Assembly (NCBI GenBank): GCA_943788175.1
Contig: CALSPG010000006.1
Location: 160,001 to 224,000 of the forward strand
Length of the DNA stretch: 64,000 nt
Origin: an uncultured bacterium
Lineage (GTDB): Bacteria; Fidelibacterota; Marinisomatia; Marinisomatales; UBA1611
Reading direction: 5' to 3'
Position numbers and translations under genes: made by a program. Position 1 is the stretch's first letter; each line of letters opens with the position of its first letter. Below, one piece after another: positions 5,158 to 18,337 of the stretch. Below the pieces are notes generated by a model, which saw nothing but the letters and a program-made list of their open reading frames with translations, searched no databases and had not been told where the DNA came from.

Positions 5158-8058
5158 TTAAAAAAACCAGTACAATCGTATTCTTTCTTTAACCCAATTT
5201 ACATTGTTTGGAACTTTATTTTTCATCTCCCAGTTTTGATAAAGGGGTATTAGTATTGGACCAATAATTATTCCAACAGAAATATAGTTTGTTTCAGGAA
5301 GGCTTCTTCCAGTCGCAAAATCAAAAAACACATCTGGAGTAAAAAAGTTAGGGAATGATTGCCTTACGCGCACCGTAAAAATATTATCATCTGATGAAAG
5401 AAATGGATTTTCAATGTTAATTCCTCTAATCCCGCCACCATTATAGACCTTCTCAAGAACACTCAACCTGTTTCCAGCGTTGCGATCCCATACGTAGTTA
5501 TCAAAATCAGGACTAATAGAACCACTTAAAAAGTAATGATATTGCTTAGGAATATTATTAAAATGTAAAAATGATCCGGCATCTAATTGAATTTTTGTTT
5601 TCAACCCTTTCGAAAAAGTTTTTTCAAGACTTGCACCAATGTCAAATTTTGCAAAATTATTACCAGCATGAATCTTTGAAAAAATCTCATATGAACTTGA
5701 GAAAGATGGTTCCCAAAATGTTCCTAAACGCAATTTAACGGTTCCAAATTTTCCGACATTATAGATATTAGGATTCAATGCTATCGTCGATTTTATGCTA
5801 TGATAATTAAAAGAAATTTTCATATTATTTTGCTTATAAGTTTTTTGAGATCTATCGTTATCTTTTGCCTTAATAATAAATTTGATACCTTCTCTACCTC
5901 CACGAGAATCAAACACGGATTCAAATGAACCTGCGCTCAAAAACCCTAAATTATAAAATTCTTTTTTTGATCGGATAATTCCATTTATCTTTTTATTCTT
6001 ATCACCATAAAGCACAAATGCATTAAAACTCTTTTTGCCAAATCCAGCATCCCCACCATAAGAAAATAATAGACCATTTAAATTCCCATCATATGAGTTA
6101 TAGGTTGGTAGCCAAGGACTAATATTTATATCTGTATTATTATAGGTAGGTTTATCATAAATAAAATGAGGTTTTAATGGCCTCTTTGTTGAATTATTTG
6201 CTCTATTTACATCTGGCATGTATTGATCAGGGTCAATAATAATTTTTTTACATCCAATTGGTGTTTCTAATGTATGGCTACCTCCTTGAAACCTCACCCA
6301 CTCTTTGCCAACTTCCTTATTACGTTTATCATAAAATGCAACTTCGACAGGTACATTAAAATTTCCATTATTTTTTATAATAAATTTTCCATTTCTTTTA
6401 TGAGCCATATAATCAATGTATGTTGTACTATCGATCAAATTTTCGAAAAACCAACTTACATCCTCATCTAGGTGATTATTAAAAGAATTAATTAAATCAT
6501 TCGATTTGGGGTGCTTGAATTTCCAAGATTCGAAATAATCTTTTAAAATTATATCTATTTTACTCTCACCTATATAATGTTGAAGATATCTCATCATCAC
6601 AGCGACTTTTGAATAATTTTGGCCATAATTACGATATGAATAATTTTTATTAGATGAAATATTTAAAGGTTGCGCACCATCTTTAAGAGCATTGGAAGCA
6701 TAATTAGAATATTGAAAATGAGGCATATTAAAGTTTTTACCAATCCCAATTTTGTTTTGTAAAACATCTGAAAAAACTAACTGCGCATTCCTTCTAGCGT
6801 ATTTTTTTTCCCAATATCGAATTCCAGAATATTCTGTTAGACCCTCATCCATCCATGCATGATCCCTTTCGTTTGTACCTAAAATCCCATAGAACCAATT
6901 ATGTCCCACTTCATGCATAATAACATACTCTAGTAAATCTTCCGATGGAGAACTTGAAATTACAGTTATATTAGGATACTCCATTCCACCACCAGCTGAC
7001 ATATCTCCATCAACAGCTGAAATATGATTATAAGGATAATCCCCGTAAAACCTACTATACCAAAGTCCAGAATCATGAATATAATCTAATGACTTGCGCC
7101 ACATCCATGCATTTTTTGGTAGATACATACTCCATAATGAAATTTGTTTAGTGGAATCATCAAGCCAGAGTTCACCTTTTTGTACAATCCAGTTCGGATC
7201 AGCAAACCAAGCAAAATCATGAACATTATATTGTCTAAAATGAATAGTTTTGTTTGGATAAACTTTTAATGAATCTTTTTCATCACTTTTCTTTTTTTTA
7301 TCACTCTTTGGTTCTTTATTTTTAAAGTGTTTTGCTAATTCTTTTTTTGTAAGATTTTTTAAAGAGTCACCAATACTTGAAAGTGAATCTAACCAGGCAA
7401 GCTCTTTTTTACCATTAATCATATCCCCCGTAGCCATTAATCGATAATTTTCTGGTAGCGTAATTTTTACGTCAAACGTACCAAATTCGCTGTAAAATTC
7501 TCCCATATTTAAGTATGGCATTGGATGCCAACCCTCATTGTCATAAACAGCTGGTTTGGGATACCATTGCGTTATTTCAAAATGTTTTCCAGAATGACCA
7601 AGCCTTGAAACTACTTTTGGAAGTTTGACAAAAAATGGAGTTTCAATTATTATTTTATGTCCAGGGAGAAGTGGTTTTGGGAGATTAATTTTTGCAACGT
7701 CAATCCATTCAACATGAAAATCCCAATTAGCTTTTACACCATCAACATAAAAATCTAGACTATCTATATATCCCCGGTCCTTTTCTTTTGTATAAAGAAA
7801 ACGTGTACTACCAAGCCTAAGAAATTGTTTTGCTAATGCTGTCGAGTCATTTTTATAGGCATTTGGCCAAAGATGAAACCAAATAAAATTTAAGGTGTCT
7901 CTACTATTATTTTTATAGGTTATTTTTTCAAAAGCTGATAGAGTTTTATTAGAGTCATTCAGAGTAACATCAATATCATATGTAACATCTTGTTGAAAAT
8001 ATTCTTCACTTCGAATGAAAGCAAATAAAAAGAGTATAAAGAATGCATAAGACTTCAT
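5158..8058 (-). CDS. Secreted M1-family zinc aminopeptidase with long C-terminal extension
   Basis: Signal peptide; GGMEYP exopeptidase motif; HEVGH-x18-E (WMDEG); QWYPK. Confidence 0.88.
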   Translation of the reverse strand: MKSYAFFILFLFAFIRSEEYFQQDVTYDIDVTLNDSNKTLSAFEKITYKNNSRDTLNFIWFHLWPNAYKNDSTALAKQFLRLGSTRFLYTKEKDRGYIDSLDFYVDGVKANWDFHVEWIDVAKINLPKPLLPGHKIIIETPFFVKLPKVVSRLGHSGKHFEITQWYPKPAVYDNEGWHPMPYLNMGEFYSEFGTFDVKITLPENYRLMATGDMINGKKELAWLDSLSSIGDSLKNLTKKELAKHFKNKEPKSDKKKKSDEKDSLKVYPNKTIHFRQYNVHDFAWFADPNWIVQKGELWLDDSTKQISLWSMYLPKNAWMWRKSLDYIHDSGLWYSRFYGDYPYNHISAVDGDMSAGGGMEYPNITVISSSPSEDLLEYVIMHEVGHNWFYGILGTNERDHAWMDEGLTEYSGIRYWEKKYARRNAQLVFSDVLQNKIGIGKNFNMPHFQYSNYASNALKDGAQPLNISSNKNYSYRNYGQNYSKVAVMMRYLQHYIGESKIDIILKDYFESWKFKHPKSNDLINSFNNHLDEDVSWFFENLIDSTTYIDYMAHKRNGKFIIKNNGNFNVPVEVAFYDKRNKEVGKEWVRFQGGSHTLETPIGCKKIIIDPDQYMPDVNRANNSTKRPLKPHFIYDKPTYNNTDINISPWLPTYNSYDGNLNGLLFSYGGDAGFGKKSFNAFVLYGDKNKKINGIIRSKKEFYNLGFLSAGSFESVFDSRGGREGIKFIIKAKDNDRSQKTYKQNNMKISFNYHSIKSTIALNPNIYNVGKFGTVKLRLGTFWEPSFSSSYEIFSKIHAGNNFAKFDIGASLEKTFSKGLKTKIQLDAGSFLHFNNIPKQYHYFLSGSISPDFDNYVWDRNAGNRLSVLEKVYNGGGIRGINIENPFLSSDDNIFTVRVRQSFPNFFTPDVFFDFATGRSLPETNYISVGIIIGPILIPLYQNWEMKNKVPNNVNWVKERIRLYWFF

Positions 8059-8808
8059 TTAATGAAAAATATTATTAAATAAATCAGCTAGCCTAACTCC
8101 CGCTTGCATTAATCTCATATCTAAAATTGGTTTTGTTACAAACATATAATTATAAGTTAGGTTATTAGTTTCAAAACTATAACATACGTTTCTATACTTT
8201 TTAGATTCATTCGCATAAAATTCGAAATCTTTAACTATCCATTTAATGCACTCTGATTCGTCAAACTCTAAATTTAAAAAATGTGCATATTCAGTAAAAC
8301 TCAAGTTCTGATGTTCAATTAATTTCTCATCCCAAACCTCATGCAAGTTGGTGTCCTCACCAAACCATTTTACTTTTATATTGTTGCCCCCTCTATCCTT
8401 GCCATTACCAACATGTAAAGGCTGATGTAAATCACCAACAAGATGCACCAACCACTTAATAGCCTGCTTTTTTTCTTCTAAACTCATGTCAACAGAGTTG
8501 GCATTTTTAGAAAATTCATTTATTTTATCTACTAGTTTCCCAGAATGCTTTCCAATTTCATAAACTTCTCCATCAGGAATAGTAGCCCAATGCCAATCAT
8601 AAGCATGGTTCCAATTAGGATTTGATTTTATTCTATCTGCCCAAATGCTTATATAAGCTAAGTCATGATGACCAATAATATTTTTGATTTGACGTTTTGC
8701 TTTATTTGACAACCTATCTTCAGCAACTTTTCCAACAATCCGATGGCCAGTATTACCCCATCCAAAAAGGGTTGAAAAAAGAGTAAGAATTGATAATATT
8801 TGCTTCAT
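8059..8808 (-). CDS. S1/P1 nuclease, secreted
   Basis: Signal peptide followed by mature WGNTGH; WAD, HLVGDLHQPLH, DRGGN, NLHEVWD. Confidence 0.92.
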   Translation of the reverse strand: MKQILSILTLFSTLFGWGNTGHRIVGKVAEDRLSNKAKRQIKNIIGHHDLAYISIWADRIKSNPNWNHAYDWHWATIPDGEVYEIGKHSGKLVDKINEFSKNANSVDMSLEEKKQAIKWLVHLVGDLHQPLHVGNGKDRGGNNIKVKWFGEDTNLHEVWDEKLIEHQNLSFTEYAHFLNLEFDESECIKWIVKDFEFYANESKKYRNVCYSFETNNLTYNYMFVTKPILDMRLMQAGVRLADLFNNIFH

Positions 8809-8887
8809 TTCATTATGTAGTGAAAAATTAGATATAAAACATTTTTCTAATGTAAAGAAAATTTTTAAACAAATTATGAAAGAATAT

Positions 8888-9598
8888 TTATTGAATATTC
8901 CTCTTCTTTTTTATCTCGCTATAAGCATCACTAACAGCTTTAAATTTTTCTTCAGCAGTTTTTTGTATTTCTTTGCCTAAGTGAGCAACTTTATCTGGAT
9001 GATATTTAACTGCCATCTTTCGATAAGCTTTTTTTATTTCACTATCAGTAGCACTTGGTTCAATTTCTAGTATTTTATAGGCGCTATCCATATCTTTGAT
9101 AAAAATAGCTTTAATTGATTCATAGTCTTTTTTACTAATATTTAAATATCCAGATATAGTGCTAATCACCTTTACTTCTTGAGGGTGGATTTCTCCATCA
9201 GATGCAGATAGACCAAAAAGAACATGTAAAAGTTCGAGTCTGCTTGGATGATCCATAGACTTTTGTATCTGCCCGCATACTTCTGCAACACTGTAATCTT
9301 GTTTTAATATTTCTTGGAACATTTTAATAAAGACACTTGATTGCTTCGAACTCAGATTGCGTTTTAAGAAACTTTTTACATAGTCTAATTCCGATTTAAG
9401 GAGCTTGCCATCAGCTTTCATAACCTTTGCAAAAAGAACCAAAAGAGAGACCATAAAGTCTCCGGCCTGAGATTGTTTTATACTTTTGTAAGAGCTCTGA
9501 TCTCCCGATCCCGCAAAAATGACACCTAAAATCCCACCAATTGGACCACCAAATGCCCAGCCTAAGGTTCCCCACAGTATTTGTTTTCCTGATATCAT
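8888..9598 (-). CDS. djlA: DjlA-like co-chaperone (TerB domain plus J-domain)
   Basis: N-terminal Gly-rich TM segment (GWAFGGPIGG), KADG, C-terminal J-domain with HPD. Start moved to ATG 9598 to avoid overlap with typA. Confidence 0.85.
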   Translation of the reverse strand: MISGKQILWGTLGWAFGGPIGGILGVIFAGSGDQSSYKSIKQSQAGDFMVSLLVLFAKVMKADGKLLKSELDYVKSFLKRNLSSKQSSVFIKMFQEILKQDYSVAEVCGQIQKSMDHPSRLELLHVLFGLSASDGEIHPQEVKVISTISGYLNISKKDYESIKAIFIKDMDSAYKILEIEPSATDSEIKKAYRKMAVKYHPDKVAHLGKEIQKTAEEKFKAVSDAYSEIKKKRNIQ

Positions 9599-9602
9599 TA
9601 TT

Positions 9603-11429
9603 TTAGACTGAGTACTTTTCCTTTTTACGTGCAGACATGCGTTTGTTTTGATCAAGCTCCATTTTTCTAAGCCTAATAGATAGCGGTGTGATTTCAACCA
9701 GCTCATCTTCTGCAATAAATTCAATAGATTGATCCAGCGATAATCTTTTAGGGGGACGAAGAGTTACAGTATTATCAGATCCAGAGGCTCGCATGTTAGA
9801 GAGCTTCTTTTCTTTTGTAATATTAACATTTAAATCTTCTGGCCTATTTCTTTCGCCAATTACCATTCCAGAATAAACTTCTGTACCTACATCTACAAAT
9901 AATTCACCACGATCAACCATTCCAAGGCAAGCAAAAGTAGTTATTTTCCCAGAACGATCAGATACAATGGCTCCACTTTTTCGCTGCGGTATTGGACCGA
10001 ACCAAGGCGCATAACCATCAAAGAGTTTATTCATTATTCCAGCACCCTGAGTGTCCGTCATGAACTGAGAACGAAACCCAATTAACCCGCGTGAAGGAAT
10101 AGAAAACTCCATATTAACCCTACCACTTCCATGGTTTTGTAAATTTGTCATACGTCCTTTCCTTGTAGATAATTTTTCTGTAATCGTACCAACCTTATCT
10201 TCGGGGATATCAAGGAATACTTTTTCCATTGGTTCTAATGTTTTTCCATCTTCCTCTTTTGTAATCACTCTAGGTTTTGAGACCATAAGTTCATACCCTT
10301 CTCTTCTCATTGTTTCAATGAGAATAGCCATTTGCAGTTCTCCTCTACCACGAACCTCAAAAGCATCAGTACGCTCAGTTTCTAATACCTGTACAGACAC
10401 ATTGGATAGGATTTCTTTATCTAGTCTCTCTTTGATATGACGCGTAGTCAAATACTTACCTTCTTTTCCTGCAAAGGGGCTATTATTTATATAAAACAAC
10501 ATTGACACTGTTGGCTCATCGACTTCAATTCTTGGTAACGGTTCAGGGTTTTCATTACTAGATATAGTGTCACCAATAGTAATACCCTCTATACCTGCAA
10601 CAGCTATAATATCACCAGCTTCAAGTTTTTCAACTTTGATTTTATCCAAGCCATCAAAGGTATAAAGCGTTGAAAATTTTTGATTATGCAAAATATTATT
10701 TTCACTACACAACGCATAAGATCCATTCATGTCAAGCGTGCCATTATTTAATCGACCTATTGCAACCTGCCCAACATATGAATCATAATCAAGACTAGTT
10801 ATTAAAAATTGAGACGCTTTATTATCGTCAGCAATTGGCCCTTGAATTTTTGTTAATATCGTATCAAACAGAGGTTCCAAATTTGTAGAACCATCATCTA
10901 ATTCATTATGAGCAATCCCATCTTTAGCATTAGTATAAATTATTGGAAATTCAATTTGAGTTTCTGTAGCATCTAAATCAATAAATAAGTCATATACCTC
11001 ATCGACTACTTCCTCAATCCTAGCATCAGACCTATCAATTTTATTTATTATAAGAATTATAGGGAGATTTTTTTCTAGAGCCTTCTTTAATACAAACCTG
11101 GTTTGAGGCAAAGGCCCCTCACTAGAGTCAACTAGCAAGAGAGCGCCATCAACCAGGTTGAGGCTCCTTTCTACTTCACCACCAAAATCAGCGTGACCAG
11201 GGGTATCCATGATATTAATTTTTATGTCTTTATAATTAATAGCAGTGTTTTTGGCCGTTATTGTAATGCCTCTTTCTTTTTCAAGATCCATCGAGTCCAT
11301 CACTCGGTCTTCAACATTTTGATGTGCTTGAAATGTTCCACTTTGTTTCAATAAACCATCAACTAGTGTAGTTTTTCCATGATCAACATGCGCAATAATT
11401 GCAATGTTTCTAAAATTTTCTTTTCTCAA
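9603..11429 (-). CDS. typA: Translational GTPase TypA/BipA
   Basis: NIAIIAHVDHGKTT, ERGITI, DTPGHADFGGEVER, GRGELQ, ELVEITP; TTG start. Confidence 0.96.
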   Translation of the reverse strand: MRKENFRNIAIIAHVDHGKTTLVDGLLKQSGTFQAHQNVEDRVMDSMDLEKERGITITAKNTAINYKDIKINIMDTPGHADFGGEVERSLNLVDGALLLVDSSEGPLPQTRFVLKKALEKNLPIILIINKIDRSDARIEEVVDEVYDLFIDLDATETQIEFPIIYTNAKDGIAHNELDDGSTNLEPLFDTILTKIQGPIADDNKASQFLITSLDYDSYVGQVAIGRLNNGTLDMNGSYALCSENNILHNQKFSTLYTFDGLDKIKVEKLEAGDIIAVAGIEGITIGDTISSNENPEPLPRIEVDEPTVSMLFYINNSPFAGKEGKYLTTRHIKERLDKEILSNVSVQVLETERTDAFEVRGRGELQMAILIETMRREGYELMVSKPRVITKEEDGKTLEPMEKVFLDIPEDKVGTITEKLSTRKGRMTNLQNHGSGRVNMEFSIPSRGLIGFRSQFMTDTQGAGIMNKLFDGYAPWFGPIPQRKSGAIVSDRSGKITTFACLGMVDRGELFVDVGTEVYSGMVIGERNRPEDLNVNITKEKKLSNMRASGSDNTVTLRPPKRLSLDQSIEFIAEDELVEITPLSIRLRKMELDQNKRMSARKKEKYSV

Positions 11430-11475
11430 AATAAATACCTATCATTTGTTAAAATTAAAATTATTTTCAAAACTC

Positions 11476-11506
11476 AAAAAAAAACCCGCCATAAAGACGG
11501 GTTTTC
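11476..11506 (-). terminator. Rho-independent terminator after tRNA-fMet
   Basis: AAAACCCGTC-TTTAT-GGCGGGTTTTTTTTT on the minus strand. Confidence 0.85.
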
Positions 11507-11512
11507 TTGAAG

Positions 11513-11586
<74 letters not shown>

Positions 11587-11762
11587 ATCATTAATTTTTA
11601 TCTATATTAAATAGCGGTCGAAAGATAAGCTAAGTAAAAAATTTATACAACAGTTACAATTAATTATTTAATAAAAAACAATCAATACAAAACGTAAATA
11701 TATTTTTAGGATAAATGACATTAGATTAATAAGATTTGGCCCCGTAAACGGGTAAAATAACT

Positions 11763-12419
11763 ATGTCAAATAATAAAGAATTAGACGCTCTGTTACAGAT
11801 ATTATCTGGAGAACAGACAATTATCCAACGTACTGATCAAAAAGCGTTTACCCTTCTATCTATTCTTGGTGCTTTTATGGTATTTTTTATTGTCCATTTT
11901 ACAAAAATGCAACTCGACATGGTCATTTTTTCACTAATTATGATCTATTTTCCTGCAGCAATGGGAACAATTTACTTTTTGGTGAGAGTTTTAATACCTA
12001 GAGTCAGGGGAGCAAAAGAAAAAAATGAAGAACCCGATGAAGAACAAACTGAAGATATCAACCCAACTTTTTTTGCTGGAATCAGTCAGTTTAACTCTCC
12101 AAATGAATATGCTATATATCTAAAGTCAATAGCAAATGATGAAAAAAAATTATACAAAATGTTTTCTGCTCAAGTATTTTCGTTAGGTTTAATCAATCAG
12201 CGTAAAAACAACAGCCTTAGAAAATCAATGGTATTTTTTGTTACTGCGTTGGTCTCTGAATTGTTGATTATCATGTATTTAGCATACCTAAGAGCCTACT
12301 CTTATCTTGATGATAGGATTTATCAATTTATTTACGGTATCATATTTATCAGTGTGGTTGCCATTGCTTTAGCACGATATGATGTTATTAGCAAAGTACG
12401 AAAGTCACTAAACATATGA
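11763..12419 (+). CDS. Pycsar-effector-like membrane protein (PycTM/DUF5706-like)
   Basis: RTDQKAFTLL before TM1, two TMs ending LIPR, NPTFFAGIS, QVFSLGLINQRKNNSLR before TM3; one extra C-terminal hydrophobic helix. Confidence 0.7.
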   Translation: MSNNKELDALLQILSGEQTIIQRTDQKAFTLLSILGAFMVFFIVHFTKMQLDMVIFSLIMIYFPAAMGTIYFLVRVLIPRVRGAKEKNEEPDEEQTEDINPTFFAGISQFNSPNEYAIYLKSIANDEKKLYKMFSAQVFSLGLINQRKNNSLRKSMVFFVTALVSELLIIMYLAYLRAYSYLDDRIYQFIYGIIFISVVAIALARYDVISKVRKSLNI

Positions 12420-12934
12420 GCAAAAATATTTATGTTATTCTACTCAGCTTCTTAATAGGGTGCATACCTCCATCCTCAAGCATACCTGGTCCAAAAGGAG
12501 ATATTGGTCCAAGAGGCCCAATAGGAGTTCAAGGTCCAAAGGGAGATAAAGGCCCAAAAGGAAATAACGGCGAAAGCGTGCCATCAGAATTATTAAAAGA
12601 ATTAAAAAACTCATTAAATAATTCAAACAATGAAACAATTGTAGGTACTTTAGCTTACAGCTTTGGCATTGCACCACGAATAACTGGCTTTTCCTATTTA
12701 ACTTCCGCAGGTAAAGTTTTTAAGCTAGAAAATAAAAACCCTCAAAAATTTGGTAGTGAAATAAAACTAATTACTCAAATATCAACAGATCAAAAATTTG
12801 TTTCCTTTGGCCGTACCACATATGGCGATGACATAAAACAACTTTTCACTGCGGTTTCAACAAATGGTGATATATACATTTCTGAAAAATTAGATTCTTG
12901 GGCAAAAGTAGCTACCATTCCACTTAGCAATTAA
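12416..12934 (+). CDS. Lipoprotein with collagen-like (Gly-X-Y)10 segment
   Basis: Lipobox LIG-C at Cys16; GPKGDIGPRGPIGVQGPKGDKGPKGNNGES; ATGA overlap with the upstream gene. Confidence 0.75.
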   Translation: MSKNIYVILLSFLIGCIPPSSSIPGPKGDIGPRGPIGVQGPKGDKGPKGNNGESVPSELLKELKNSLNNSNNETIVGTLAYSFGIAPRITGFSYLTSAGKVFKLENKNPQKFGSEIKLITQISTDQKFVSFGRTTYGDDIKQLFTAVSTNGDIYISEKLDSWAKVATIPLSN

Positions 12935-12952
12935 ATTTTTATTGATTAACTT

Positions 12953-14131
12953 TTGATTATGGGCATAATCACAAAGTTTATCGGAAACAAACTTGTCAAA
13001 GCTGCTATCAAAGCTGGTCATATTCCAGCAGAAATACCTTCCAATGAGAAAGAAAGACTTGAAGACCTAAAGCGTTTAAAATTAGTAGAACAAAATATTA
13101 ATAAAGATAAACGCTATTCTAGTTTTCCAAAATTAGCCGCTACATTAACAGGCTGCTCTCAGTCAGCAATACACATACTTGATGACGATACCCAACATTG
13201 TAAAGTAAGCTATGGTAAAGATTTACCAACAGAAATCATGACAAAAGAAGCGCCAAGACAGCTTGCAATATGTTCTCACGTATTAAACAATAATTCAAAA
13301 CCCTTAGTAATAAGTGATGTTTCAATTGATGAAAGAACAAAACACGCATATGCTTTAGCACCAGGATTTCCTAGATTTTATGCCGGTAGCCCAATTATAT
13401 CAAAATCGGGTTTTACACTTGGAACATTTTGTGTATTTGATGACGAACCTAAAGTTCTTGAGCATTCAAAGATTGATGCATTGCGAATGCTGGCAGACCA
13501 ATTTATAAATATTTACGAATCATCAAATGAGTTTGCTTCAAATGATATTGACATAAATACTAGTTCAGAAAAAATCATTGGAGAATATTATTCATCAACA
13601 ACTATTTTATTTTCTGATTTTGTAGGATTTACAAAAAAAACTGAGGAATTAGATCCTGGTCAATTAATTGAAATTTTAGATTCATTTTTTAGTGGTTTTG
13701 ACAAAATTATGGAAAGATTTTCTATTAAAAAAATTAAAACCATTGGCGATGCATATATGGCTGCTGGAGGTATTCCTGATCTTAATTCAGATCACGCAGA
13801 TAGAACTGTGATGGCAGCCATTGAGATGATAAACTATGTAAGGGGAATAAACTTTCAACAAAAAGCGCTAGGAAATGAACCTTGGGAAGTCAGAATAGGA
13901 GTACATACTGGTCCTATAATCGCTGGAAAAACATCAAGTGAATTTGATATTTGGGGAGACTCTGTAAACATCGCTGCAAGATTAGAAAGCAGCGGAAAAA
14001 AGATGCGGGTTAATTGCTCAGAGGAAACAAAGTCGCATTTAAAAAACGCCTATAACTTTGAGACAAAGAGCAACGTTGAATTGAAAGGAAAAGGACAAGC
14101 GACTACTTTTATTATCAAAGATCAAATCTAA
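12953..14131 (+). CDS. GAF domain + class III adenylate cyclase
   Basis: P..E.ERL and RFYAGSPI...GTFCVFD GAF motifs; ILFSDFVGFT, KTIGDAYM, RIGVHTG, FDIWGDSVNIAARLE. Lys/Asp specificity pair indicates ATP. Start TTG 12953 or ATG 12959. Confidence 0.9.
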   Translation: MIMGIITKFIGNKLVKAAIKAGHIPAEIPSNEKERLEDLKRLKLVEQNINKDKRYSSFPKLAATLTGCSQSAIHILDDDTQHCKVSYGKDLPTEIMTKEAPRQLAICSHVLNNNSKPLVISDVSIDERTKHAYALAPGFPRFYAGSPIISKSGFTLGTFCVFDDEPKVLEHSKIDALRMLADQFINIYESSNEFASNDIDINTSSEKIIGEYYSSTTILFSDFVGFTKKTEELDPGQLIEILDSFFSGFDKIMERFSIKKIKTIGDAYMAAGGIPDLNSDHADRTVMAAIEMINYVRGINFQQKALGNEPWEVRIGVHTGPIIAGKTSSEFDIWGDSVNIAARLESSGKKMRVNCSEETKSHLKNAYNFETKSNVELKGKGQATTFIIKDQI

Positions 14132-14195
14132 TAAGCATATTTATTAACTTAAGGTTTTCGGCTACCACACTACTACTAATAACAATAAAAAACTT

Positions 14196-14223
14196 GGAAC
14201 TTTTTAAACTACCTTAAGTTAGT
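14196..14223 (+). promoter_or_regulatory. Putative ECF-sigma promoter GGAACT-N16-GTTAGT
   Basis: Same motif and spacing at 42115-42142 and 47846-47873; sits just 5' of the structured element. Confidence 0.5.
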
Positions 14224-14300
14224 AATAATAGGAGCAGGCTTTTAGTATGACACCTTTCCTCCTCTTTGGTTTCACCCCTGCCTGCTCCTATTATTTTTTT
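14224..14300 (+). ncRNA. Candidate structured sRNA with anti-SD loop (copy 1); may also act as terminator
   Basis: Perfect 16-bp outer stem AATAATAGGAGCAGGC/GCCTGCTCCTATTATT, inner hairpin with loop TTTCCTCCTCTTT, 3' T-run. Confidence 0.5.
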
Positions 14301-15606
14301 CTAAATGATAATCTAATTGGCAAGCCCTTTAAGTCAAAATTTAACCGTATCTGGTTCATAAGAAAACGTTGGTACGAAACCTTTATTAATTTTGGATAAT
14401 TAGCAAATAAAGCAATTACAACAGGCTGCTTGTGAACTTGGACACAATAATTTATTTTAATTACCTTCCCTTTTTCAGCTGGAGGAGGGTTTTCGTTCAT
14501 AGCTTTTTCAACTAAAGAATTCAACTTGTTTGTTGGAATAGAATTTTTTGACCTTTCGTAAACTGACCATGCGTCTCCAAAACTTTATTGATTCTTTGCC
14601 TGGTTGTGGAAGATATAAAAATAATTGGAAAATGATCTAATTCCTTATACTGTAAACGGATCTCTTCCTCAAATTCTTTCATTGTACTTGTGGATTTTTC
14701 AATTTTATCCCATTTATTTACAACAAAAATCAATGCCTTGCCCTTACTTATTACATAATCAACAATTGACTTATCTTGCTTACCAAAACCTTTTTCTGCA
14801 TCAATTAGAACTAAAGCAACATTACAACTAAAAATTGCATTTTGTGTTCTAAGGCTACTGTAATATTCTATTTTATCTTTTATTTTGGACAGTTTTCTAA
14901 GTCCAGCAGTATCAACTAATGTTATTTCATTCCCATGCCATTTTAAATATGAATCAATAGCATCTCTGGTCGTACCAGCTATTGGAGTTACAATTGTTTG
15001 TTCTCTCTGAAGAAGAGCATTCGTAAGAGATGATTTTCCAACATTTGGCATTCCGACGATTGCTAATCTTAAATCTTCAGGATTGTCATATTCTTCATTG
15101 GTTACTCCTAGACCAAGCTTACTAAGGACAGCATCAAGAAGGTCTCCTGTTAATCTACCATTAAGCGCAGAAATAGGATATGGTTCTCCAATTCCTAAAT
15201 GATAAAAATTTTGAACTATTGAATCGTATTTCATTGTATCAACTTTATTAACGACCAATAAGTGTGGACGATCACTTTCTCGAACAAATTGAGCGAGTGT
15301 AAGATCACTTGAGGTTGCATCAACACGACCATCAATCATAAGAAGAATTAAATCTGCTTCTGAAATAGCTAATTTTGCTTGTTCTCTTACAGCCGCATTA
15401 AATATATCAGTATCTTCTGGTATAAACCCACCGGTGTCAATAAAACGGAGCTTTTGTCCGCACCATTCCATTTCTCCATAGATTCGATCTCTGGTTATAC
15501 CCTCAGTTGCATCTACGATTGCCTGCCTTTGGCTCAAAACACGATTGAAAAATGTGGATTTACCGACATTCGGTCGACCAACTATTGCTATAAGGGGCGT
15601 TGACAT
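14291..15606 (-). CDS. der: Ribosome biogenesis GTPase Der/EngA, split by a 1-nt frameshift near 14575
   Basis: Two G domains (GRPNVGKST, DTGG; GMPNVGKSS, DTAG, NKWD). The KH-like C-terminus (NENPPP...Y.RFL.N..R) continues in the adjacent frame. Confidence 0.92.
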
Positions 15607-17731: not shown

Positions 17732-18337
17732 TTAATAGTTTTTAGCAACCCTCTTTGACAAACGCGAACGAATTCTACTCAAAGCAACATCGGTGATACC
17801 TAGATAAGATGCTATCATTTTAAGAGAAATTGATTGGATTATCTTCGGATGATTTTCAACCAATTCAAGATATCTATCTTCTGCAGATTTCGTAATCATG
17901 GACTCAAATCTTTTCTCAATATTCTGATGAAATAAATTTGTAATCTTAAATGCGATAATTTCGAGGTTGGGAATTTTTCTCTTCCCGATCTCAAAATTTT
18001 CTTTTGTCAGCTCCCATACATCACAATCAGTGACAGCTTTTATTGAGTACCTTGAAGGTTCTTCCAGATAAAAACTCGGGTAGACCAATGCTGGAGAATC
18101 TCTAAATATAAAGTCTCTAACGAACACTTTCGAGCCATGTTGATATTCCATCGAAAGAATACCCTTATTTAGGTAATAAACAGACTTTGAGATAGTTCCT
18201 TGTTGATCAATTACAGATTTTTTTTTGTACTGTTTTCGAGAGTGTAGTGCTCCTAAAAAAATTTTTTCTTGTTCATTAAGCGAGGCAATTTTACTCATTC
18301 TATCAACATGAGAATTTTTTGATTTTATGCTAGACAC
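17732..18337 (-). CDS. Crp/Fnr-family regulator (cNMP-binding domain + HTH)
   Basis: YYLNKGIL, PSRYSIKAVTD, SAEDRY...IASYLGITDVALSRIR (Bacteroidetes-type Crp). Confidence 0.88.
   Translation of the reverse strand: MSSIKSKNSHVDRMSKIASLNEQEKIFLGALHSRKQYKKKSVIDQQGTISKSVYYLNKGILSMEYQHGSKVFVRDFIFRDSPALVYPSFYLEEPSRYSIKAVTDCDVWELTKENFEIGKRKIPNLEIIAFKITNLFHQNIEKRFESMITKSAEDRYLELVENHPKIIQSISLKMIASYLGITDVALSRIRSRLSKRVAKNY

Follow-up and report, generated by a model that had tools for sequence, protein, structure and literature searches.

A PycTM-family membrane protein and a collagen-stalked lipoprotein as a likely vertically inherited envelope module of Marinimicrobia, with a class III cyclase as its probable late neighbor

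We analyzed a 64,000-nucleotide stretch of DNA (hereafter, the window; NCBI GenBank assembly GCA_943788175.1, contig CALSPG010000006.1, positions 160,001 to 224,000) from the genome of an uncultured member of the Marinimicrobia (SAR406), which are among the abundant bacteria of the dark ocean. The source genome is a 2.27-Mb assembly in 12 contigs and is 92% complete. Our focus was on three tightly packed genes on the plus strand, here named A, B and C, which encode a predicted inner-membrane protein of the PycTM family, a lipoprotein with a collagen-like stalk, and a class III nucleotide cyclase with a GAF domain (Table 1). An initial annotation, made from the sequence alone, had interpreted this trio either as a non-canonical Pycsar-like anti-phage module using cyclic AMP (cAMP) or as a domesticated membrane effector circuit gated by a cyclic nucleotide monophosphate (cNMP). 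The layout that it described was confirmed throughout: A and B overlap in an ATGA at 12416–12419, B and C are separated by 18 nucleotides (nt) if C begins at its TTG codon and by 24 nt if it begins at ATG 12959, the genes directly flanking the trio lie on the minus strand, and gene A is transcribed divergently from a tRNA-Met(CAT) gene. This tRNA carries a C1.U72 mismatch and three G-C pairs (GGG/CCC) that close the anticodon stem, features that we take to be the marks of an initiator tRNA. The GC content is even across the locus (0.32–0.36), with no anomaly.

We compared the surroundings of gene A in 20 wide loci, which reached ~7 kb to each side of A and came from more than 10 families of the order, and in 80 further A loci from species-representative genomes; cyclases in the wide loci were sought with C at E ≤ 1e-5. 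Gene A was present in 44 of 61 related genomes. It is followed by B in 19 of the 20 wide loci and has B directly downstream in 77 of the 78 further loci that had room for it, and in 20/20 junctions compared the two genes overlap or lie no more than 8 nt apart. No third family keeps company with the two: of the 80 further loci, all have A and 77 have B, whereas the next most frequent family reaches 26. We consider A and B to be, with high confidence, a functional pair. The initial annotation had placed a collagen-like lipoprotein between the other two genes; B does have a lipobox and 10 G-X-Y triplets, and it is no interloper but the constant partner of A.

Linkage to C, in contrast, is confined to one sub-lineage of a single genus. 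No cyclase was found within ~7 kb of A in any of the 20 wide loci, and a class III cyclase appeared in only 4 of the 80 further loci: close kin with the A-B-C arrangement account for three, and in the fourth a different cyclase lies on the opposite strand. C adjoins A-B only in the window genome (G000), genomes G001, G003 and G006, and locus L063 (G and L numbers are our handles for genomes and loci). Eight loci with C orthologues in other genera lie on other contigs, without A and B, and their flanks differ by genus. In the same-genus genome G007 (locus L062), the A of which is 89% identical to that of the window, the slot between B and der holds a gene for a 738-residue CotH-family protein (7141–9357 on the plus strand; Pfam CotH, 195.8 bits), which shares ~30 nt with the end of B, and in other genera der comes directly after B. 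We conclude from these arrangements that the position behind B is open to varying insertions and that C was a late arrival in it. The initial annotation had proposed synteny of the trio across related genomes as a check on its claim; that linkage was found for A and B and not for the cyclase, and with the cyclase unlinked in other genomes the Pycsar-like reading fails by its own test.

The distribution of A follows bacterial families, as is the case for a vertically inherited gene. A was found in 102 of 276 genomes of the phylum and in 73 of the 190 high-quality ones, occurring in nearly all genomes of some families (f1, 22/24; f9, 39/44; f2, 4/4; f10, 4/4; f21, 9/11) and in none of those of others (f12, 0/21; f17, 0/24; f23, 0/20; f30, 0/21). 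In the same family-level genome pairs A was 62–64% identical, der 60–77% and RNR 73–74%; B, at 42–48%, evolves faster than A. The neighbors of the trio include genes for a DbpA-type helicase, YaaA, an M1 peptidase, an S1/P1 nuclease, a TerB-DnaJ fusion, TypA, der, and a type IX secretion system (T9SS) hydrolase, as well as the Crp-like gene, RNR, RRF, PyrH, EF-Ts and S2. A PADLOC search of these neighbors, one of the checks proposed for a defense module, returned nothing but generic helicase and GTPase cross-matches, and no defense genes lie around the trio. Because A is old, slow-evolving and paired with B, and the cyclase is a recent, lineage-specific arrival, we regard it as highly likely that the locus is not a defense system. 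The explanation that we favor, and consider probable, is that A and B make up an envelope module of two translationally coupled genes, old and vertically inherited in Marinimicrobia, and not an anti-phage system; C is its late neighbor.

By its sequence, A is a true but divergent member of the PycTM (DUF5706) family, in line with the initial annotation. It scores 47.8 bits against Pfam PF18967 (cut-off, 27.2) and matches nearly all of the 160 positions of the PADLOC PycTM model (E 1.4e-16); an NCBIfam scan yielded no family for it. When 1.84 billion proteins were searched with a profile of A, 443 representatives reached E ≤ 0.001 and 92 of these reached ≤ 1e-10, with a sharp fall thereafter, and PF18967 was present in all 30 representatives that were sampled. 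These 30 included six fusions of an HD domain to a PycTM module (hereafter, HD-PycTM; 97–120 bits), one Guanylate_cyc-PycTM fusion, and three A-type proteins that reached only 44–50 bits, which is why we place A on a divergent branch of the family. The AlphaFold2 model of A is all helical (predicted local distance difference test score, pLDDT, 77), and the hydrophobic peaks lie at residues 28–46, 54–72, 156–174 and 186–204. Lysine and arginine are concentrated in the N-terminus, in a long, helical loop of ~78 residues and in the C-terminus, a charge distribution that places these three parts in the cytoplasm; the periplasmic parts total fewer than 30 residues. Three transmembrane (TM) helices form the core, the chain stopping after TM3 in 16 of 20 orthologues, and the fourth TM helix of the window’s A recurs in three others of the 20, limited to this genus and its close kin. 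The most conserved parts are all predicted to be cytoplasmic: R-x-DQKAFT before TM1, NPTFF-G after TM2, and L-G-x-I-N-x-x-K. Foldseek found nothing in PDB at E ≤ 0.001 for the A model (best, 0.33) and no PucTM chain, a structure that may be missing from the searched copy, and the top hits of a VIA wide search were unrelated helical proteins with Z up to 11.2, a value inside the tool’s range for helical models; these outcomes do not bear on how novel the fold is.

Gene B encodes a short lipoprotein with a lipobox, LIGC, at residues 13–16, the cysteine of which is invariant in 19/19 orthologues. Behind the cysteine come the G-X-Y stalk, a short helix and an eight-stranded domain (AlphaFold2 pLDDT 84.9, 8 strands). 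The stalk has 10 uninterrupted triplets in the window, compared with 5–14 in the 19 orthologues; its score against Pfam Collagen (23.5) is below the cut-off of 27.2, and NCBIfam gave weak matches to Lcl and Scl. As in the bacterial collagen-like proteins Scl1/Scl2 and Lcl, a G-X-Y stalk is expected to trimerize, but B is a 172-residue lipoprotein and neither an LPXTG-anchored nor a secreted adhesin. The best Foldseek matches of the strand domain were two blades of WD40 propellers (E 3e-3), and a fusion of the lectin RSL (7p2j) was matched as well (E 1.7e-2; TM-score 0.40 on the target). RSL is a small propeller lectin that forms trimers, and the likeness lies in the fold only: a two-blade unit modeled into a six-bladed ring as a trimer. 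Three copies of B residues 53–172 were modeled as such a closed six-bladed propeller with a score of 0.90, against 0.00 for the best of 3 controls, with at least 98% of contacts common to three runs and pLDDT of at least 90. When the tool was calibrated, 20 of the 30 homomeric pairs with solved structures passed its mark, as did 1 of the 23 single chains, a guide that is rough for three copies modeled from a custom alignment. The model thus supports, and does not show, trimerization of B into a six-bladed head. At least 1,880 members of this family occur in public data, none with a functional name.

Gene C encodes a GAF-class III cyclase (Pfam Guanylate_cyc, 160 bits; GAF_2, 30.3) in which both KTIGD and FDIWGD are present, as the initial annotation had read. 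The alignment of its orthologues, which begin at the codon corresponding to ATG 12959, favors that start. All 10 aligned orthologues keep the two metal-binding Asp residues, the KTIGD Lys, the FDIWGD Asp and the Asn/Arg residues. We assume for them the roles of a catalytic Asp pair, a base-recognizing Lys/Asp pair of the purine type and the Asn/Arg of the cyclase catalytic domain, and the Lys/Asp residues presumably argue for ATP and against GTP as substrate. The loop before FDIWGD, which had been noted as shortened, is 3 residues shorter than that of AC9 in a HMMER alignment, and since the short loop is common to 10/10 orthologues it appears to be a trait of the subfamily rather than a lesion. 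Of 55 matches to solved structures, the best were mammalian AC9, AC5 and AC8 together with adenylate cyclases from bacteria, and none was a Pycsar cyclase. The best PycC score of C is 39.8 bits; among the other cyclases of the genome, three that lie nowhere near a PycTM gene reach 57.7, 80.9 and 83.3 and a fourth reaches 36.3. The genome holds six class III cyclases and two CNBD proteins, of which the Crp-like gene product is one. Judged by profile score, nearest structures and Lys/Asp residues, C is not PycC-like; it reads as a physiological, GAF-regulated class III adenylate cyclase with cAMP as its predicted product. Full-length orthologues, at 43–97% identity, occur in several genera of the family. 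One assembly carries two near-identical copies of C (G001:C19 and G001:C209; 96% and 95% identical to that of the window), possibly through strain heterogeneity.

Table 1 Features of the A-B-C locus (positions are those of the window)
Feature	Position	Strand	Remarks
Gene A, PycTM / ‘pJV1-SpdB3 3TM’ family protein, predicted inner-membrane	11763–12419	+	218 residues; Pfam, PADLOC
Gene B, lipoprotein with collagen-like stalk and two-blade beta-propeller domain (modeled)	12416–12934	+	172 residues; constant partner of A
Gene C, GAF + class III adenylate-type cyclase	12953–14131	+	392 residues; probable start ATG 12959
tRNA-Met(CAT), initiator-type features	11512–11586	-	ARAGORN; Rfam tRNA, 63.1 bits; context, outside the module
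Perfect 10-bp inverted repeat with T-run, candidate two-way terminator	14230–14300	.	Between convergent C and der; putative function
Crp-like cNMP-binding regulator	17732–18337	-	cNMP_binding, 36.5 bits; context only

In 4/4 runs, which come from 3 studies, contigs from RNA libraries bridge the B-C junction, and contigs in 2 runs of a single study bridge the A-B junction; in runs X6 and X8 no listed contig covers the A-B junction, which says nothing about absence. A consensus scan placed no plus-strand terminator-like site between A, B and C. Neither promoter-like matches (10, versus 13.2 ± 4.1 in shuffled sequence) nor terminator-like matches (3, versus 2.3 ± 1.6) were in excess. The inverted repeat between C and der was read from the sequence as two arms, 14230–14239 and 14280–14289, 40 nt apart and followed by a T-run, and went unlisted in the scan because loops longer than 8 nt are not reported; it is a possible two-way terminator for C and der. 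Over 11400–14400, Rfam found only the tRNA, plus two small RNA matches below threshold (E 0.19 and 0.63). RNA-library contigs of three runs end just 5′ of the ATG of A, at 11734, 11746 and 11762, one of them with adapter letters past its end, a weak hint of a transcript start with a very short leader.

The module carried by A recurs in a second setting, the HD-PycTM proteins of the FCB group, for which our literature searches turned up no publication. When A was compared with the PycTM module of these fusions, hhalign gave 98.6% (E 6e-16) over 181 columns, and the two share the motifs D-x-K-A, N-x-x-F-F-G and L-G...K. We sampled the neighbors of HD-PycTM genes in 80 metagenome loci (L140–L219) and found a Metallophos-Omp85 protein in 43, a 790-residue protein with a sub-threshold GAF match in 35, lipoproteins of the SdiA-regulated family, which we take to have a beta-propeller fold, in 27, class III cyclases in 8 and ppk1 in 5. 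A phmmer search with the C domain had given 3 loci with cyclases, and applying Pfam to cluster representatives raised this to 8/80. The 790-residue protein and the membrane class III cyclases shared 0 loci, as if they were alternatives, and hhalign detected no homology between C and the 790-residue protein (0.8%). None of the open reading frames (ORFs) surrounding HD-PycTM genes in the 80 loci was matched by the B profile, and when B was compared with the SdiA-regulated-family lipoproteins, hhalign gave 25%. The HD-PycTM fusions thus share with A the three-TM module over its full length, neighborhoods of an envelope rather than a defense type, and a lipoprotein that is often near; they differ in that A has no HD domain, that Metallophos-Omp85 and ppk1 are not found near A, and that the lipoproteins are not detectably homologous. 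A PycTM-family protein with an envelope lipoprotein, and with or without a cyclase, is a recurring theme assembled from unrelated parts. One protein of 356 residues, P0123, joins Guanylate_cyc (42.5 bits) to a PycTM module (109.7 bits) and would be a cyclase-effector fusion in a single gene.

Measured against known immune systems, the locus shares with Pycsar (PycC with PycTM or PycTIR, as presented in the accessible part of PMC11224242) the protein family of A and, in the window, a class III cyclase nearby on the same strand. It differs in the purine-type Lys/Asp, GAF sensor, low PycC score and adenylate-cyclase nearest structures of C, in a cyclase pairing that is not conserved, and in an A that is slow-evolving, vertically inherited, paired with a lipoprotein and set in a housekeeping context. 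A closer structural analogy is offered by Pucsar, described in the available portion of a preprint (bioRxiv 10.64898/2026.08.12.744502) as a two-gene abortive-infection defense operon that pairs the cyclic GMP (cGMP) cyclase PucC with PucTM or PucTIR. There, the EcPucTM protomer has three TM helices and a cytosolic region that is helical, and six protomers assemble into a channel with TM2 as its lining, the cGMP site of EcPucTM being still unresolved; an ATP-preferring subclade, ‘Pycsar-like-4’, is predicted; and immune cyclase clades are fast-evolving relative to physiological outgroups (bioRxiv 10.64898/2026.08.12.744502). A and C both behave like the physiological outgroups, not like the immune clades. 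Purine cNMP signaling to an effector of the ‘pJV1-SpdB3 family 3TM’ is what the locus may have in common with Pucsar, and EcPucTM, as presented in that portion, is the best structural analogy for A; the differences are that there is no conserved cyclase partner here, that the A model lacks a beta-sheet appendage, and that A has a fourth TM helix in this genus. The family takes its name from SpdB3 (bioRxiv 10.64898/2026.08.12.744502), which in Streptomyces conjugative plasmids acts in plasmid spreading within a multiprotein envelope complex and is toxic when over-expressed, in E. coli, according to the part of PMC4447253 at hand. SpdB3 resembles A, to which it is linked through the family name, as a membrane protein that works in an envelope complex, and differs in being plasmid-borne, Gram-positive and devoted to DNA spreading. 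Among the papers listed on PycTM and DUF5706, judged from titles and the beginnings of abstracts, none dealt with a housekeeping role, and searches returned nothing on Marinimicrobia with collagen-like proteins and, among the papers listed, nothing relevant on Pycsar as a housekeeping or vertically inherited system. The A-B module is undescribed in the literature searched, and related cyclases or 3TM proteins may appear in supplementary material to the Pucsar preprint.

The explanation closest to the initial annotation is that the trio is a non-canonical, cAMP-using relative of Pycsar or Pucsar that acts by abortive infection, in which a cNMP made by the GAF-cyclase on infection would open a PycTM pore and kill the cell. 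That A passes the PycTM models and that a class III cyclase lies two genes downstream on the same strand agree with it, as does the existence of purine-using relatives of Pycsar, namely Pucsar with cGMP and the ATP-preferring ‘Pycsar-like-4’ predicted in the available portion of the preprint (bioRxiv 10.64898/2026.08.12.744502). We judge it to be extremely improbable all the same, and synteny already largely refutes it: the cyclase-effector pairing is missing in 20/20 wide and 76/80 further loci, C is less PycC-like than its unlinked paralogues and belongs to a conserved orthologue group with housekeeping behavior, and a constitutive lipoprotein partner is not known in Pycsar. Furthermore, A evolves as slowly as der, unlike the immune clades that the preprint, as far as it is available, reports as fast-evolving; its distribution is family-wise and it has no defense neighbors. 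The proposal of a defense module is therefore not upheld, with the cyclase unlinked elsewhere, C not PycC-like and no marks of a defense island. The second proposal, a domesticated circuit, proved half right; the word ‘domesticated’ is apt.

A physiological cAMP circuit restricted to the sub-lineage, in which the GAF domain of C senses a metabolite, cAMP gates A, B is the periplasmic output, and the relocation of C (and of the Crp-like gene) was selected for co-regulation, strikes us as unlikely, though it draws on several observations. B and C are 18–24 nt apart on the same strand with no terminator-like site between them and are bridged by RNA contigs in 4/4 runs; their adjacency is kept in G000, G001, G003, G006 and L063, with the Crp-like gene in its slot in the first three of these. 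Six cyclases against two CNBD proteins in the genome leave room for other receptors, cyclases occur in all A-bearing genomes that are at least 90% complete, and cyclases stand near HD-PycTM genes in 8/80 loci, with one cyclase-PycTM fusion. The slot in G007, however, is taken by the unrelated CotH gene, which is packed equally tightly behind B, and such packing is hence no special trait of the cyclase; in nearly all lineages A-B does without an adjacent cyclase; A has no known or detectable cNMP-binding motif; and the co-occurrence hangs on two cyclase-free genomes among the relatives. Alternatively, A and B may have no connection to nucleotides, A being a membrane partner (anchor, assembly factor or export channel) for B, itself a lectin-like periplasmic or surface ligand-binder, a reading that we hold only tentatively and as somewhat doubtful. 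It would account for the strict pairing and translational coupling of A and B in the absence of a conserved nucleotide enzyme nearby, for the resemblance of the B head to small oligomeric propeller lectins such as RSL (7p2j), and for the faster evolution of B (42–48% versus 62–64% for A), which is common for exposed binding proteins; SpdB3-type relatives that are membrane-toxic and part of envelope translocation complexes fit as well, as far as the accessible part of PMC4447253 goes. The conserved cytoplasmic motifs of A, on the other hand, recur in HD-PycTM proteins lacking a partner like B, and this points to a ligand in the cytoplasm or a gating function throughout the family; moreover, the only characterized family members respond to cNMP-producing cyclases according to the portions available of two reports (bioRxiv 10.64898/2026.08.12.744502; PMC11224242).

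Under the favored explanation, an old envelope module of A and B, A would sit in the inner membrane with its N-terminus and ~78-residue helical loop in the cytoplasm and would probably oligomerize into a gated, channel-like assembly, by analogy to the hexameric EcPucTM. B would be exported and lipid-anchored and would probably trimerize via its collagen-like stalk, its three two-blade domains closing, as modeled, into a six-bladed propeller head in the periplasm. A and B would be made together and most likely act together, presumably in physical contact. C, an ordinary GAF-adenylate cyclase by its sequence, would have landed in the slot between B and der in one sub-lineage, where all three genes probably share a transcript. 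C may provide cAMP for A to sense there, and A-B would be independent of an adjacent cyclase. We consider gating of A by a cNMP possible but rather unlikely. Genome G045, in which A is present and no cyclase match was found at 87% completeness, counts against such a link. More speculative still, and in our view improbable, is the picture of A as a six-fold, PucTM-like channel with the trimeric B head docking on its periplasmic face in a 3-fold to 6-fold match, a trans-periplasmic device that would be opened or closed by physiological cAMP; the Pycsar and Pucsar suicide pores would then be weaponized descendants of an older housekeeping envelope channel gated by a cNMP, still present in SAR406 and, fused to HD domains, in Bacteroidota.

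Several observations weigh against an A-B envelope module with an incidental cyclase. Locus L121 has room behind A but carries a SUI1-like gene there instead of B. C has stayed beside A-B across at least 5 genomes, down to 75–83% identity. Every A-bearing genome that is at least 90% complete has a class III cyclase, and the cyclase-free genomes G047 and G050 have no A, although these are two data points from related genomes; class III cyclases beside HD-PycTM genes in 8/80 loci and the cyclase-PycTM fusion P0123 point the same way. One RNA contig also spans the boundary between the convergent C and der, and such contigs are not proof of single transcripts. The physical tie of A to B is suggested by gene linkage, and A shows the periplasm only a ~6-residue loop and a short tail, so that contact with B is not obvious. 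Finally, because the fold searches gave no informative neighbor, the channel analogy for A draws on the sequence family.

The PycTM family is annotated as a phage-defense effector in Pfam and PADLOC, yet here it is a slow-evolving gene of whole Marinimicrobia (SAR406) families with a fixed and unusual partner. The family would therefore have a physiological branch, which could reveal the origin of the immune pores. Automatic ‘Pycsar’ calls based on PF18967 with any nearby class III cyclase are liable to yield false positives in such lineages. B, if its model is right, would be a compact case in which a collagen stalk of bacterial origin brings three chains together into a propeller.

Other features of the window and of related loci are recorded here. 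The initial annotation had pointed to a Crp-family gene nearby as a possible second cNMP reader; the gene is indeed present (Table 1) and is sporadic, occurring in 6 of 37 relatives. Besides the window genome G000, only G001 and G003 have it in the same slot (hydrolase-Crp-RNR), and these three are the genomes in which the full A-B-C arrangement was seen; a place near the trio is thus limited, for the Crp-like gene, to the sub-lineage in which C adjoins A-B. In another genus, locus L225 (G021:C108, ~447–1893) has a Crp-like paralogue, 42% identical to that of the window, beside a class III cyclase, unrelated to A-B. The der gene (EngA; 14291–15606, minus strand) is split into ORFs of 361 and 77 residues in different frames around 14572–14574 and is intact at 438 residues in G007. 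RNA contigs of 3/4 runs carry one extra base at 14572 or 14574, the fourth having no cover there, and the frameshift is therefore probably an artefact of the assembly or strain. The longest ORF of the TerB-DnaJ fusion (8888–9724, minus strand) overlaps the 3′ end of typA by ~120 nt; the G007 orthologue aligns only from residue 43, which suggests that the start is probably downstream and the overlap with typA spurious. Just upstream of A in the wide loci lies a tRNA-Met(CAT) in 5/20, all from the window’s own family (L028, L031, L032, L034 and L035), and a tRNA-Ala(GGC) in 4/20, from other families of the order (L041, L043, L045 and L047).

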